DNA of 64,000 bases from Escherichia phage moskry. Location of the stretch: sequence record MN850651.1, one strand, 5' to 3'. The position numbers were made by a program, and so were the translations under genes. Of the stretch, positions 3,369 to 32,239 are shown piece after piece; within the stretch, counting starts at the first letter, position 1, and each line of letters starts with the position of its first letter. Under the pieces are notes generated by a model. That model did no database searches and had not been told where the DNA came from. It saw nothing but the letters and a program-made list of their open reading frames with translations.

Positions 3369-3694
3369 TTAAACCATCCTTTAATACGTTGCCAAATAGA
3401 TTTTTGTGCTTGTTTATTTACACCAATCGAACGAATAACCGGTTGTGACTGCTGATATTCTTTATAATCTTCTTTATAGATTTCGTAAGCTGCATCAACA
3501 AATGAACTGATCGCTGCCATGTAGTTTTTACGAAGGCCAAATGGCGCGTCATTATTTTCACGAATAACCGTATATTGGCCTGCTTTAATCTTTACAATTG
3601 TCCCTAAATAAGCCCCGTGGTACCAAATATCCCATCCTTCCTGAGTAGGTTCTGCACATTTACGAAGTTCGTTAATAATATTCAGCTTATTCAT
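3365..3694 (-). CDS. hypothetical protein
   Basis: 109-aa ORF immediately downstream of motA. Confidence 0.5.
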
Positions 3695-3704
3695 TATGTA
3701 TTCC

Positions 3705-4337
3705 TCACAGTACGTTAGTTACAAGGGTAATGATTTCTTTGGACACATTAGGGAAGTCAATGTAAGTATATTTACCACCGATCTTAATCTTAACATCATT
3801 TTCAAGAGAAGTAAACAGCTTTGATTCAGTTTCTGACATGTTGTATGCAAAGATTCTAAGAGAACCATCTCGACGAATTTCGATCTGACGAATACCTAGA
3901 ACTCGTTTAGCGAATCGAACTTCTAAGTTACTACGGTTTTCACCAATTTCTTTAACTTCAACTTTATCTTTAATATTTTCAAAAACAAAGTTTGCTAATT
4001 CATGCATTTCAGGAGTAACTCCACGTGCTTTTCTAGTGTTACGTTTCTGAAGAAGTTCTGGAGCATTTTCTTGGGCAAAGAGGTCTGCAGCTTTTTGGAT
4101 AATATCCATTGCTTCGCCTGTTGCTACAAGTCCATCACCGGATTTTTCGACTAAACCTTTCTTAATCAATACACCAATGTTAGAGTTAACAACCGACGCA
4201 TTGTATTCTGCTTCCAGAGCTTCACGGACATTGGCAGCAGTGGTGAAGTTGTTCTTAATGATATAAACCATTATTGCAGCAGTTTTTTCATTCAGAGCGT
4301 TTTCAGAAGCTTTGATGATGTAAGTAACTTTAGACAT
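3705..4337 (-). CDS. motA: middle-transcription activator MotA
   Basis: 210 aa; MSKVTYIIKASENALNEKTAA.. and NSNIGVLIKKGLVEKSGDGL motif match T4 MotA as recalled; SD GGAGAAA upstream. Confidence 0.9.
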   Translation of the reverse strand: MSKVTYIIKASENALNEKTAAIMVYIIKNNFTTAANVREALEAEYNASVVNSNIGVLIKKGLVEKSGDGLVATGEAMDIIQKAADLFAQENAPELLQKRNTRKARGVTPEMHELANFVFENIKDKVEVKEIGENRSNLEVRFAKRVLGIRQIEIRRDGSLRIFAYNMSETESKLFTSLENDVKIKIGGKYTYIDFPNVSKEIITLVTNVL

Positions 4338-4376
4338 TTTATTTCTCCAATTTGGGTGTTTTGTTTTGATAGGTCT

Positions 4377-4405
4377 ATACTATCATGTTTGAAGCAAAAG
4401 TAAAC
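4377..4405 (-). promoter_or_regulatory. early sigma70-type promoter for motA (GTTTAC-N17-TAGTAT)
   Basis: Read on - strand: GTTTAC, 17-nt spacer, TAGTAT, then conserved AGACCTATCAA; about 40 nt upstream of the motA ATG. Confidence 0.55.
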
Positions 4406-4424
4406 TGTTTTGTGAGAAAAATGC

Positions 4425-4448
4425 ACAAAAGGGAGCCCGAAGGCTCCC
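4425..4448 (-). terminator. rho-independent terminator hairpin downstream of gene 52
   Basis: GGGAGCC-CGAA-GGCTCCC stem-loop followed on - strand by a UUUUGU run. Confidence 0.6.
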
Positions 4449-4524
4449 TAATCATGTTTGTCCAACCAATACAGCCAAATCACTAGTACAGCTATTGCAC
4501 CGAGAAATCCTAAGGCTAGGGCAC

Positions 4525-5850
4525 TCAAAGTGCCTCCAAGTCTTTAGTGTACTCGGTCACAACATCAGTAGACTTCCAATACTCATTTTCTTCTTTCTTA
4601 GCTTTAGCTTCTTCTGCTAGTTTACGTGCTTCGTCGGAAGTGATATGGAAGATGTTAAGACCTACCAGTTTATCGACATGTTCTTTATACATTTCGATTT
4701 GTGCTAGCTCTTCAGTCAAAGCTTTACGAGTCTTGCCCTGAATCACAATTTCACCTGTAATAACTTTTTTGATGAAGTGTGCCTTAGCAAAAGCAAGTTT
4801 AAATGCTTTTTCAGATTCAAGGATTTTGTTGTCAATACGTTTCTGAACGTAAGTCTTACGGACTTCAACAAAATCTTTGATTAAGTCCACTACGTTATCG
4901 TAGACAGCTAATTTACCCTTTTCATTAATCACTGTGATGTTTTGTGAACGACGTTCGATTAGACTAAAATCTTTCATGATTTTTTCATGACGTAGCTCTT
5001 CGTCATCAGGAAGCGAGTACTCTTTACGGAACTTCACCTTAAACCCAAAGCCGTGTTCACCGCAATCATCTTCCCATGAGATTAGACCTTTGTCTTCCAA
5101 CGGGTCAAGAACCTTACTCACATACGTTTCACGGTCAAATTTATACGGGATTTCAGTTATCTGCATTTGAGTTCGAGATGTGAACTTATATGTCCCGTGA
5201 ATCTCATAACGCCCATCAACTTCATGTACTTCACCACGGAATTCCGGGAATTCAACTTTTGGCTTAGTGACATTTTTACCTTGAAGAGCTTGTAATACGG
5301 CCTTTTTGACTGATTTAAAACTATGAGGCAGAATATTTGTTGCGTAACCGGTTGCAATACCAGAGACGCCATTCAAAAGAACTGTCGGAATAATAGGAAG
5401 ATAGAATTTTGGTGGAATGTGTTCTTTATCTTCATGAGCTGGAGCATATTCAGTATCTTTATATACGTTATAGAAATTTTTACTTACACGAGCAAAAATA
5501 TAACGAGATGCTGCAGCTTTTTGGACTGTTCTAGAACCAAAGTTGCCTTGGCCATCTAACAGTGGATAGTTGTTGTTCCATGTGTTAGCCATCAATGCAC
5601 CTGCATCTTGTGCAGAAGATTCACCGTGGTGATAACCTAAATCTGCAACACCACCTGCAATTGACGCAAGTTTATGAAATTTTTCTTTATTACCACGAGC
5701 CAAATCTAACGCACGATGAACCACAAAACGTTGAACCGGCTTAAATCCATCAATCATGTTTGGGATTGCACGGTTTTCAACGGTGTACATCGCATATGCT
5801 AAGGCTTCGTTATCAATAATACTTTTTAGATTACGAGAATTCAATTGCAT
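4525..5850 (-). CDS. 52: DNA topoisomerase II medium subunit gp52
   Basis: 441 aa; GyrA-like N-terminus (..RAIPNMIDGFKPVQRFVV.., active-site region) matching T4 gp52. Confidence 0.95.
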   Translation of the reverse strand: MQLNSRNLKSIIDNEALAYAMYTVENRAIPNMIDGFKPVQRFVVHRALDLARGNKEKFHKLASIAGGVADLGYHHGESSAQDAGALMANTWNNNYPLLDGQGNFGSRTVQKAAASRYIFARVSKNFYNVYKDTEYAPAHEDKEHIPPKFYLPIIPTVLLNGVSGIATGYATNILPHSFKSVKKAVLQALQGKNVTKPKVEFPEFRGEVHEVDGRYEIHGTYKFTSRTQMQITEIPYKFDRETYVSKVLDPLEDKGLISWEDDCGEHGFGFKVKFRKEYSLPDDEELRHEKIMKDFSLIERRSQNITVINEKGKLAVYDNVVDLIKDFVEVRKTYVQKRIDNKILESEKAFKLAFAKAHFIKKVITGEIVIQGKTRKALTEELAQIEMYKEHVDKLVGLNIFHITSDEARKLAEEAKAKKEENEYWKSTDVVTEYTKDLEAL

Positions 5851-5854
5851 ATTT

Positions 5855-5995
5855 TCACCATATTAATGAACGAATAGCCATTATAACATCTGAAATGAAA
5901 AGCACTACTTGGATTAGTCCAAACATCACACCATAATACAGAACCGTAAGCAACAACAAGAGCCCGAAGGCTCCTGCTAGGATTTTCTTAATCAT
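5855..5995 (-). CDS. tiny hydrophobic protein (46 aa)
   Basis: Not in ORF track (<60 aa). MIKKILAGAFGLLLLLTVLYYGVMFGLIQVV..; start overlaps the stop of the upstream tiny ORF as TAATG; between gene 52 and ndd where T4 has 52.1/ac/stp-type small genes. Confidence 0.35.
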   Translation of the reverse strand: MIKKILAGAFGLLLLLTVLYYGVMFGLIQVVLFISDVIMAIRSLIW

Positions 5996-6141
5996 TACTC
6001 GCCTTTTAACACGTTAATAAGAGCTAAGACCGCTAAGGTGCCTTGTGATACGGCCTGTTGAAATACTGTTGTTTCGCCTGTAACTAAAGTGTTAACGAAT
6101 AAAAACGACCAACACAGCAATGCAATAATCCATGATACCAT
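5995..6141 (-). CDS. tiny hydrophobic protein (48 aa)
   Basis: Not in ORF track. MVSWIIALLCWSFLFVNTLVTGETTVFQQAVSQGTLAVLALINVLKGE; single TM helix. Confidence 0.35.
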   Translation of the reverse strand: MVSWIIALLCWSFLFVNTLVTGETTVFQQAVSQGTLAVLALINVLKGE

Positions 6142-6193
6142 TTTAATTACCTCAAAAATAAATTAAAGGCCCAACTTAATAGGCCCGTATAAA

Positions 6194-6640
6194 TTAGTAA
6201 CTCTGCAGAATGAATTTGAAATTATCTGCCAGAAGACGGTTCATTTCAGTGAGTGTTTGATATTCTGATGTATGGTTGCGAGTGAATGCCAGAGCCAATT
6301 GTCCTTTACCATAACCAGTAGTCAGGGGTTTCATGTTCTTAGCTGCAACAAAGATTACATCATATTCAATATTGTTAGTGCCCATAGTACGGGCTAGTTG
6401 CGAACGGCCTTGACGAATGTGAGAAAGAATTGCATCCAACCCTTGTTTAGAACGTTGACGTCCTACAAAGAATCGTGCTGCTACTTGTCGCCAATCAGAT
6501 GAACCTTTAACAAAGAAGTAAAAACCTTCACGAGAACGAAACTCTTTAGAAACTTCAGAACCGTATTCACCATTACGAACTACTGCAACAACTTCACCGC
6601 CAACTGCCAGAAGGTCTTTACGAGTTAAATATTTGGACAT
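6194..6640 (-). CDS. ndd: nucleoid disruption protein Ndd
   Basis: 148 aa; ..[70 protein letters not shown] matches T4 Ndd from memory. Confidence 0.85.
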
Positions 6641-6684
6641 GCTAATTTCCTCAATTGATTAATGTTTTTGTAATCCATGAGAGC

Positions 6685-6713
6685 ATTATACTCTGCTCTC
6701 AAGAGTTTGTACA
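6685..6713 (-). promoter_or_regulatory. early promoter upstream of ndd (TGTACA-N17-TATAAT) with dyad GAGAGCA/TGCTCTC flanking the -10
   Basis: Read directly on - strand. Confidence 0.5.
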
Positions 6714-6716
6714 ATT

Positions 6717-6917
6717 TTATTCGGCCATATCAGAACGTTCAAAAAGCTCTTCAACAGTTAAACATTCAGTGTCATCTTCAATAAAGAATCGAGTCCAACA
6801 CGTTGGGGCGATACAGTTATGAGTTTGTCCGGCGATAGAAGCTACACGAATAAGCTGCTGACCATTATTCAGAACAAATTTTTCACCAATTTCAACATCT
6901 TTAAAAAGCTTAGCCAT
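6717..6917 (-). CDS. hypothetical protein (66 aa)
   Basis: ORF track; SD GAGGAA before ATG; own promoter upstream. Confidence 0.45.
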   Translation of the reverse strand: MAKLFKDVEIGEKFVLNNGQQLIRVASIAGQTHNCIAPTCWTRFFIEDDTECLTVEELFERSDMAE

Positions 6918-6945
6918 TTTGTGTTCCTCATGTTTCAGTAGGACT

Positions 6946-6975
6946 ACTATACCATAATCCTACCTTGATGTAAAC
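6946..6975 (-). promoter_or_regulatory. early promoter GTTTAC-N18-TATAGT
   Basis: Consensus hexamers plus downstream AGTCCTA box; upstream of the 6717-6917 gene. Confidence 0.5.
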
Positions 6976-7431: not shown

Positions 7432-7457
7432 GATGTTATCCTCTTTTAGATAGGACT

Positions 7458-7487
7458 ACTATATCATAGTCCTACTTAGTTGTAAAC
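7458..7487 (-). promoter_or_regulatory. early promoter GTTTAC-N18-TATAGT embedded in dyad TAGGACT/AGTCCTA
   Basis: Read directly; upstream of the 7168-7431 gene. Confidence 0.5.
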
Positions 7488-31876: not shown

Positions 31877-32239
31877 TTAAAAGAATTTAAATTTTTTCTT
31901 GGTTCGTTCATTAAAAGCTTGTTGTACTTGCATTGTAACACATTTTTCAACATGTGGTGCAAGTTCTGCTTTTCTGTCCTGATCAAGAACTGCAAAGTCC
32001 ATTACGATTTTACCATCAACCCAGTCTAGTTTTGTAATATAGACTATATGATGAGAACCGTCTTCAAGTGTAATCAGAATCTCTTGAATGACATTTTCCA
32101 TTGCTGAACGGACAATTTTAAGAGATTCATTAAACACTCGTTCTTTGCGAATGTCTTCCCCTTCCGAAGAAGGGGATTCATCAACGATTTCTAGATTTAA
32201 ATCATCGAGATTATTCATCGAAATCTTCCATTTCGTCAA
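31877..32239 (-). CDS. 40: gp40-like protein (by position between gene 41 and uvsX)
   Basis: 120-aa ORF; synteny only. Confidence 0.45.
   Translation of the reverse strand: MTKWKISMNNLDDLNLEIVDESPSSEGEDIRKERVFNESLKIVRSAMENVIQEILITLEDGSHHIVYITKLDWVDGKIVMDFAVLDQDRKAELAPHVEKCVTMQVQQAFNERTKKKFKFF

Follow-up and report, generated by a model that had tools for sequence, protein, structure and literature searches.

An RNA hairpin inside the coding sequence of the small membrane-peptide gene 52.1 in Mosigvirus and other T-even phages

The 52.1 gene and its overlaps with adjacent genes

The DNA considered here, referred to as the window, is a stretch of 64,000 nucleotides (nt) from Escherichia phage moskry (MN850651.1). 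Its ndd-52 region is that of a Mosigvirus, i.e. of the RB69-like T-even phages that infect E. coli and Shigella. Two tiny open reading frames (ORFs) of 46 and 48 amino acids (aa) are present on the minus strand between gene 52 and ndd, as an earlier note on this DNA had claimed, and the neighbours it named are confirmed. These frames are termed 52.1 and ac, respectively; the gene order ndd, ac, 52.1, 52, motA, all on the minus strand, is found in every annotated relative. Within the coding sequence of 52.1 is a stable mRNA hairpin, and its conservation and possible role are the subject of this analysis. A search with the 601 bases that span the locus matched 163 phage records, 151 of them at 95–99% identity, nearly all from Mosigvirus. 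Coordinates of the features are collected in Table 1.

The 46-aa frame is assigned by homology as the Mosigvirus ortholog of T4 gp52.1, already annotated in RB69 (NP_861956) and T4 (NP_049876). The match to Pfam PF24129 scores 81.1 bits against a cut-off of 27, with residues 1–46 on profile positions 1–46, and the peptide also matches PHROG 3595 (E = 1.8e-23). It has the same length as T4 gp52.1, 46 aa, and 74% identity with it; codons 7–19 are rewritten in Mosigvirus relative to T4. With the Mosigvirus query, homologs turned up in 730 phage records; a Klebsiella-phage query added 86, and together they extend over Tequatrovirus, Mosigvirus, Gaprivervirus, Dhakavirus, Jiaodavirus, Kanagawavirus and the Marfa/Biddle-like Klebsiella phages. 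A word-index protein search gave only 13 clusters, and the Klebsiella and Edwardsiella relatives were reached by tblastn only.

Codon alignments of 52.1 display many synonymous differences and few replacements. The ratio of nonsynonymous to synonymous substitution rates (dN/dS) is 0.03–0.07 for the C-terminal half (codons 20–46), at a dS of about 1–1.5, and 0.05–0.10 for the whole ORF in the non-Mosigvirus genera. Because replacements are few compared with the many synonymous changes, i.e. because there is purifying selection, 52.1 is a real protein-coding gene. The conservation of the frame in related phages, on which the earlier note had made its proposal depend, is thus borne out by the 730 records and by the C-terminal dN/dS. 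The proposal of a single transmembrane segment also agrees with the structural model: AlphaFold2, given 12 homologs, predicts one unbroken helix for gp52.1 (residues 2–45, predicted local distance difference test score 96.8), which is compatible with such a segment, and hydropathy is evenly high along the peptide.

At the ac/52.1 junction the minus strand reads GAG-TAA-TG, with one A common to the ac stop TAA (5997–5995) and the 52.1 ATG (5995–5993). The TAATG stop/start overlap noticed earlier is real in the window, but its exact form is not conserved. At all 38 distinct loci compared, the 3′ end of a small hydrophobic ORF (43–57 aa) overlaps the start of 52.1 by 1, 4 or 8 nt, with TAATG at 10 loci, ATGA at 10 and ATGATTAA at 18. 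In T4 the ac/52.1 overlap is of the 8-nt form, ATGATTAA, and not TAATG, although stop and start overlap in both phages. In Mosigvirus G2285 a deletion of 1 nt turns the TAATG form into a T4-like 8-nt form. Thus the three forms interchange, and it is the overlap that is conserved and not TAATG itself.

The 52.1 Shine-Dalgarno sequence is weak (AAGGCGAG). At its other end, 52.1 is separated from the gene 52 ATG by 4 nt in the window, and the distance to the next ATG is 4–8 nt in 38 of 38 loci; the final 52.1 codons (UGG-UGA/UAA/UAG) double as the ribosome binding site of the next gene. The arrangement of ac, 52.1 and gene 52 shows what would be a coupled chain of small membrane-peptide genes leading into a topoisomerase gene. 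The small hydrophobic frames are genuine, conserved and, to judge by their overlaps, tightly coupled.

The ORF 5′ of 52.1 is not an Ac homolog in every locus. Across T-even genera, the ORFs that overlap the 52.1 start (at five of the loci and others) fall into at least five families that look unrelated, and only some are Ac-like (motif GET(T/S)VFxQA); the slot is kept and the occupant swapped. In some Gaprivervirus- and Dhakavirus-like phages (four loci) another ORF (MSDV... or MADVID...) is found between 52.1 and gene 52, and this ORF keeps the short stop-to-start spacing.

An RNA structure kept by selection

A GAGCC/GGCUC hairpin with a CGAA loop had been reported inside the downstream ORF at 5960–5973. 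The hairpin is present there, but the RNA loop is UUCG closed by C-G and not CGAA, because the genes are transcribed from the minus strand. The stem has a core of 5 bp (four of them G-C pairs) and reaches 11 bp with G-U pairs, for a folding energy of −16.7 kcal/mol. Relative to dinucleotide shuffles its z score is −3.9 to −4.2, and none of 200 shuffles was equally stable. The antisense (plus) strand folds to only −8.6 kcal/mol, and as G-U pairs are numerous in the stems, the structure fits the sense RNA only. When both strands of the window were scanned for 30-nt local folds, the hairpin ranked second among those of the minus strand, where it ties with the terminator after gene 52. An Rfam search of 4300–6800 gave no match on 5855–6141 at E ≤ 1.

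In the tail, UUGUUGUU, U makes up 6 of the 8 bases that follow the 5-bp core and 4 of the 8 that follow the 11-bp stem; the terminator model has a run of about 7–9 U. The U-richness of the tail was considered as evidence of termination and set aside, since the 12 bases of four Leu codons can hold no more than 8 U, a number that common codons already reach.

Selection on the structure was assessed by a recoding test, in which 1000 synonymous versions of the coding sequence of each peptide were drawn from phage codon usage and folded over nt 13–57 of 52.1. The native sequence is far more stable than its recodings in the window (z = −4.7, p < 0.001) and in the T4 group (z = −3.9 to −5.0, p ≤ 0.001). 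This is also found in the Marfa/Biddle-like Klebsiella phages (z = −3.2, p = 0.002) and in Metamorpho (z = −2.9, p < 0.001). Two Jiaodavirus forms gave z of about −1.8 to −2.0 (p = 0.03–0.06), and the test was without significance for KpV477, K65 and Kanagawavirus. Permutation of synonymous codons within the ORF resulted in an identical ranking of lineages. Control windows, taken from ac, from the remainder of 52.1 and from the initial 240 nt of gene 52, have z values of −2.7 to +1.6.

Substitutions within lineages show the same constraint. The 38-nt hairpin region is carried with at most three mismatches by 151 of 151 Mosigvirus-matching records. Among the 17 distinct Mosigvirus sequences, stem changes keep pairing (U-G to U-A, G-U to G-C), and the sole exception is at the outermost U-G pair, in DCP548. 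The T4 group differs in codons 7–19 and has no UUCG loop, but displays two adjacent hairpins at the same site, GGGCUA-UUCAU-UAGCCC (nt 18–34) and UGCUGCU-UUAUU-GGUAGCA (nt 36–54), with a joint energy of −18.7 kcal/mol (z = −4.9). In the 12 distinct sequences of this group all 156 stem cells are standard pairs, against 24–60% paired in slid controls. Seven additional pair types occur, one of them a double change from C-G to U-A by which two amino acids are replaced, and the loop columns vary freely.

The hairpin of the Klebsiella phages is at nt 19–42 of 52.1 and has four forms: GUAGCCAUC-CUUGU-GAUGGCUAU, GUGGCAGC-UAUU-GCUGCCGC, GGCGGCAA-UGA-UUGCCGCC and GGAGCGGCU-UUAGU-AGCCGCUUU. Because hairpin registers differ between genera, cross-genus column covariation was set aside; recoding was performed per lineage, and columns were compared within the T4 group only. 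A metagenome scan added further variants and no new deep lineage. The RNA structure of the 52.1 hairpin is thus shown to be kept by selection in several lineages, from unrelated sequences and at the same codons. The codons that form it are in the first third of the 52.1 mRNA and encode a variable, transmembrane part of the peptide.

Table 1. Features of the ndd-motA region of the window and the basis of each assignment.
Feature	Position	Strand	Basis
mRNA hairpin UAGCAG-GAGCC-[UUCG]-GGCUC-UUGUUG, codons 6–14 of 52.1	5954..5979 (core 5960–5973, codons 8–12)	−	folding; recoding test
U-rich stretch UUGUUGUUGCUU (four Leu codons) after the GC core; possible weak terminator tail	5948..5959	−	read from sequence
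52.1 ortholog, conserved hydrophobic peptide (DUF7396), 46 aa	5855..5995	−	Pfam PF24129, E = 6.5e-23
TAATG stop/start overlap, ac/52.1	5993..5997	−	read from sequence
Predicted MotA-dependent middle promoter of gene 52, in the 3′ half of 52.1	5872..5912	−	Mot box TGCTT 5904–5900; −10 TATAAT 5885–5880; start expected near 5873
Shine-Dalgarno GGUGA of gene 52, made by the final codon and stop codon of 52.1	5855..5859	−	read from sequence
ac ortholog, Ac acridine-sensitivity membrane peptide, 48 aa	5995..6141	−	PHROG 2501, E = 3.4e-22
Shine-Dalgarno GAGG of ac, 8 nt 5′ of ATG	6150..6153	−	read from sequence; ribosome binding site annotated here in phage 55
Terminator-like hairpin GGGCCU..GGGCCU then UUAAUUUAUU, between ndd and ac	6167..6186	−	in-house terminator scan
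ndd, nucleoid disruption protein; upstream early gene	6194..6640	−	Pfam Phage_T4_Ndd, E = 4.3e-89; labelled ndd in relatives
Gene 52, DNA topoisomerase II medium subunit	4525..5850	−	Pfam DNA_topoisoIV, E = 8e-78; PHROG 551, E = 4e-217
Terminator hairpin AGGGAGCC-[UUCG]-GGCUCCCU + UUUGUG after gene 52	4430..4449	−	in-house terminator scan
motA, activator of middle transcription, 210 aa	3705..4337	−	ORF list; syntenic with annotated MotA of JK36

Promoter, related hairpins and neighbouring genes

The predicted middle promoter in the 3′ half of 52.1 reads TAG-TGCTT-TT, 12 nt, TATAAT (5907..5880) and fits the T4 middle-promoter consensus, spacing included: (a/t)(a/t)(a/t)TGCTT(t/c)A, 11–13 nt, and a −10 sequence TAnnnT. 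Exactly this site has been predicted in RB69 (Pm:164206, hidden Markov model score 16.9; Nolan et al., 2006, PMC1524935 supplement), and OL960576 annotates a gene 52 middle promoter. The sequence GTGCTTTT(C/T)ATTTCNGATG(T/C)TAT(A/T)(A/G)T is kept in all sampled genera except Kanagawavirus, where the box is TGCTG. Conservation of the Mot box covers synonymous positions of Val and Leu codons, and adjacent synonymous sites vary. The hairpin is upstream, approximately 48 nt from the Mot box. MotA, which the predicted promoter needs, is phage-encoded just downstream of gene 52. A transcript from about 5873 would hold no more than the gene 52 coding sequence and the ribosome binding site before it.

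Codon 40 of 52.1 (5876–5878), just 3′ of the −10 TATAAT and between it and the expected transcription start, is hypervariable among near-identical Mosigvirus sequences (GCT/GAT/GTT/ATT, i.e. A/D/V/I). As to the timing of transcription in T4, gene 52 had the prior class 'middle' and ndd is early; stp, ac and 52.1 had not been classed before, and their RNA is assigned to the early class. No mapped gene 52 middle promoter, primer-extension or transcription start site data, and nothing usable on 52.1, were found in the literature.

Hairpins of the C(UUCG)G class were reportedly described in T4 mRNA by Tuerk and colleagues in 1988. UUCG tetraloops were first noticed in T4 mRNA (summarised in PMC4371310). 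The hairpins of T4 and that of 52.1 are alike in having UUCG closed by C-G, on the transcribed strand and in the early region. The 52.1 hairpin (5973..5960, minus strand) falls within the class definition; its counterparts in RB69, phage 55 and LF82-3/-9 do not, having UUAG. The UUCG loop is not essential at this site, as RB69 has UUAG and other genera have loops of 3–5 nt and of other sequences.

The class is abundant in the window. CTTCGG is found 32 times against 15.5 expected. When only stems of 6 bp or longer are counted, there are 11 C(UUCG)G hairpins where 200 shuffles predict 0.135, an approximately 80-fold excess; 10 of the 11 are on the minus (transcribed) strand. Most start within 7 nt of the stop codon of the preceding ORF, and three overlap the stop by 2 nt. 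Four have clear U-runs (6–8 U in the 8 bases after the stem), and several have no U-tail and are found directly 5′ of a Shine-Dalgarno sequence. The 52.1 hairpin starts 15 nt past the ac stop. In that sense, it occupies the place expected for ac's own hairpin, with the 52.1 frame running through it. The classic T4 hairpins of this class are intercistronic, whereas that of 52.1 is within a translated frame. A second intragenic C(UUCG)G hairpin of the window, UCCCCUUC-UUCG-GAAGGGGA at 32157–32176 (minus strand), has 8 bp and no U tail and is within a 113-aa ORF.

A 15-nt core, GGAGCCUUCGGGCUC (GGAGCCTTCGGGCTC), is identical in the 52.1 hairpin (5960–5974) and in the terminator after gene 52. Gene 52 is thus bracketed by two copies of one palindrome, 1.5 kb apart. 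The identity of the two cores could be a convergence on a strong stem or the trace of a gene conversion. At the hairpin after gene 52 the RB69 terminator 'motA<--52' has been predicted (Nolan et al., 2006, PMC1524935 supplement). Two further minus-strand hairpins, at 7449–7478 and 6935–6964, are alike (UAGGACUA...UAGUCCUA) and overlap sigma-70-like early promoters, TTTACA-17-TATAGT, at 7486..7458 and 6974..6946. These hairpin/promoter pairs resemble PeSL-type cassettes before small ORFs.

The 48-aa frame is assigned from sequence similarity as the Mosigvirus ortholog of T4 ac, already annotated in RB69 (NP_861957) and T4 (NP_049877), where strand and order, ndd - ac - 52.1 - 52, are the same. 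Identity with T4 Ac is 32%, and T4 Ac finds the window by tblastn with E = 1.8e-5. Pfam has no Ac family, but RB69, JK36 and many other relatives have the frame labelled 'Ac acridine resistance protein'. The hydropathy of Ac points to a clear hydrophobic segment near the N terminus and to a weaker one near the C terminus. T4 Ac has been proposed to insert in the membrane and interfere with AcrAB-TolC, and loss of ac leads to acriflavine resistance, a phenotype known for T4 only (2025 preprint, bioRxiv 10.1101/2025.06.30.662393).

T4 has stp between ndd and ac; in the phage described here the ndd-ac spacer is 52 nt and holds a terminator-like hairpin instead. A tblastn search of the window for stp gave noise only. 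Of the T4 small genes to which the earlier note had compared the two frames, ac is therefore the correct counterpart of the 48-aa frame, while the downstream frame corresponds to 52.1 and not to stp, which is absent. The RB69 terminator 'ac<--ndd' has been predicted at the ndd/ac hairpin (Nolan et al., 2006, PMC1524935 supplement), and the hairpin carries a terminator annotation in OL960576, G2285 and PhAPEC2. T4 and Gaprivervirus have a GGCGUC-UU(C/U)G-GACGCC hairpin directly 5′ of the ac Shine-Dalgarno sequence (T4 locus 3510–3545, minus strand; DCP80). In T4 it falls in the final codons of stp, and stable hairpins are thus found on both sides of ac.

Annotation of the locus is inconsistent. 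Among NC_054917 (G50), MZ726795 (ASO78A), NC_024794 (PhAPEC2) and OL960576 (SA79RD), some records are without 52.1 and have the terminator only; one GenBank record is without ac, and some name 52.1 'acridine resistance'. The T4 records AF158101, NC_000866 and HM137666 have no promoter or terminator features at the locus. This is a caution to annotators, as some pipelines lose 52.1 and keep only the terminator, and others do the opposite.

Possible roles of the hairpin and relation to known systems

What might such a hairpin do within a translated gene? The role tentatively favoured, with a likelihood that approaches an even chance and does not quite reach it, is that of a leaky terminator and/or 3′-end stabiliser that separates the early ndd-ac unit from a MotA-driven gene 52. 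The hairpin and the U-rich Leu codons would act like the stable hairpins behind other early genes of the genome, i.e. as a leaky intrinsic terminator and/or an exonuclease barrier at the 3′ end of the early ndd-ac transcript. Less early transcription would then run on into gene 52, whose expression would depend chiefly on its own MotA-dependent middle promoter, about 48 nt past the hairpin. Terminator predictions in two genera point to this role: in OL960576 (Mosigvirus SA79RD) the hairpin is called a rho-independent terminator by TransTermHP and WebGeSTer, terminator features are also beneath the hairpin stretch in NBG1, ATK48 and G2469, and in Tequatrovirus G50 and ASO78A, which have no annotated 52.1, the T4-type hairpin is called a terminator at the equivalent place.

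A number of observations weigh against this role. The in-house terminator scan did not call the 52.1 hairpin, and no terminator is listed there for RB69 (Nolan et al., 2006, PMC1524935 supplement). The U-tract UUGUUGUUGCUU is interrupted by G and C and partly used by the extended stem, and its U-richness is not independent evidence because it is expected in any transmembrane coding sequence. Ribosomes should melt the hairpin because it is within a translated frame. Its sequence and presence are also not constant: UUAG replaces the UUCG loop in RB69, phage 55 and LF82-3/-9, and the hairpin is weak in Kanagawavirus, weakened in K65 and lacking in KpV477-like phages. As the KpV477-like phages and K65 keep the Mot box, the hairpin is dispensable and not tied to the promoter. 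An RNA-seq re-classification of T4 genes places gene 52 with the early genes, like its upstream neighbours, and this argues against strong insulation by the hairpin. No 3′-end mapping (Term-seq) or termination assay for T4-type phages was found in the literature. The attenuation of transcription into gene 52 suggested earlier is plausible, with terminator calls in two genera and a conserved MotA-type promoter downstream in its favour, and with an interrupted U-tract and a negative scan against it.

A more elaborate form of attenuation, to which only a small probability is given, would be a translation-sensitive attenuator written into the gene of a membrane micro-protein. If ribosomes that had completed ac restarted on 52.1 close behind RNA polymerase, no stem would form and transcription would read through into gene 52; if translation lagged, the transcript would end at the hairpin and gene 52 would wait for MotA. 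Such an element would have arisen anew, each time from a different sequence, in at least four or five lineages of T-even phages, as the variable transmembrane codons tolerate a hairpin.

Perhaps the hairpin affects stability or processing only, with no termination. It would then block 3′ to 5′ exonucleases, or keep RegB away from the GGAG of its stem, and the ac message would as a result outlive its neighbours; this is possible, if on the unlikely side. Hairpins flank ac in both T4 and Mosigvirus (5′ of the Shine-Dalgarno sequence and 9–15 nt past the stop), and those C(UUCG)G hairpins of the window that directly precede a Shine-Dalgarno sequence without a U-tail would be of a like kind. Secondary structure is known to protect GGAG from RegB (review, PMC3014915), and the 5′ arm here is GCAGGAGCC; however, GGAG is missing from the hairpins of other genera, and the terminator-predictor calls at the site would be left unexplained. 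Somewhat less probable is a translational role. The hairpin begins at +17 to +24 of the frame, immediately beyond the stretch that a ribosome on the 52.1 start codon would cover, and there it might hold terminating ribosomes for re-initiation or limit independent initiation. In that case, and with the same rather low probability, the output of 52.1 and of gene 52 would scale strictly with the translation of ac. The 5′ hairpin edge is at +15 to +24 in every hairpin-bearing lineage despite unrelated sequences, all 38 loci have one of the three overlaps, and the Shine-Dalgarno sequence of 52.1, AAGGCGAG, is weak. Yet confinement to the variable transmembrane codons 6–19, upstream of the promoter, explains the position equally well, and neither ac nor 52.1 is among the listed rows of the T4 expression and proteome tables; both are in the table of temporal classes. 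To our knowledge, a downstream hairpin that aids re-initiation is not an established bacterial mechanism.

Whether the hairpin has any function at all can also be asked. It might be a by-product of GC-rich Ala/Gly/Leu transmembrane codons, or a recombination scar from the near-identical terminator after gene 52. The recoded Klebsiella-phage sequences average −9 to −10 kcal/mol, which indicates that peptide composition predisposes to structure; the identical 15-nt core is found 1.5 kb away, and some lineages have lost the hairpin. Nevertheless, native folds exceed their synonymous recodings in stability by 3–5 standard deviations in four unrelated forms while controls do not, all stem substitutions seen preserve pairing except the one at the outermost pair, and the G-U pairs tie the structure to the sense strand. 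The recoding and covariation results make a chance by-product unlikely, and absence of function is regarded as very improbable. Least credible of all is a role at the DNA level, as a PeSL/PmSL-type recombination cassette in which stem-loop and promoter mark the exchange border of the variable small genes 5′ of 52.1. It is true that 52.1 and gene 52 stay constant while the ORF 5′ of 52.1 comes from at least five families that look unrelated, and that cassettes of a stem-loop and Mot box (PmSL) have been described for phage nt-1 (PMC4122927). But the first 15 nt of 52.1 (ATGATTAAGAAAATC) are conserved 5′ of the hairpin, which places the border 5′ of the start codon and not at the stem; hairpin sequences differ between genera and provide no homology for exchange; and the stem, itself inside an ORF, is separated from the Mot box by 48 nt.

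The 46 codons of 52.1 carry three overlapping layers: a conserved peptide, an RNA hairpin of conserved structure and variable sequence in the first third, and the predicted MotA promoter and gene 52 ribosome binding site in the last third. If the hairpin is a terminator or a barrier at the RNA end, the locus would illustrate in compact form how T-even phages keep the immediate-early and the middle expression of a replication gene apart. It would also show that an RNA structure can be upheld inside a coding sequence by way of a transmembrane segment that tolerates substitutions. The ac and 52.1 genes, the UUCG hairpin class and the terminator label at the site in several records are already known. 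In the literature, leaving aside Miller et al. (2003) and older gene 52 papers, neither a 52.1 hairpin conserved in position and divergent in sequence across genera nor the overlap of peptide, hairpin and promoter/ribosome binding site in 52.1 was found described.

The element can be compared with several known systems. Like intrinsic terminators and attenuators, it has a GC-rich stem and a U-rich sequence and is found between an early unit and a separately promoted gene. It differs from these in its interrupted U-tract and its location inside an ORF, and no alternative anti-terminator structure was found. PeSL/PmSL cassettes (Arbiol, 2010; Comeau, 2014, PMC4122927) likewise have a stem-loop followed by a promoter at the edge of an exchange region of small genes. 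Those cassettes are intergenic, with the stem-loop directly 5′ of the promoter, whereas here both are within a conserved 46-codon gene and 48 nt apart. With its stem in an ORF and a stem sequence that is not common to the genera, the 52.1 element is not assigned to this group. The promoter-coupled bacterial terminators (Fletcher et al., bioRxiv 10.64898/2026.08.19.745784) are similar in that a terminator is near the promoter of the next tandem unit. There, the two signals overlap and share sequence; in 52.1, hairpin and promoter are separate.

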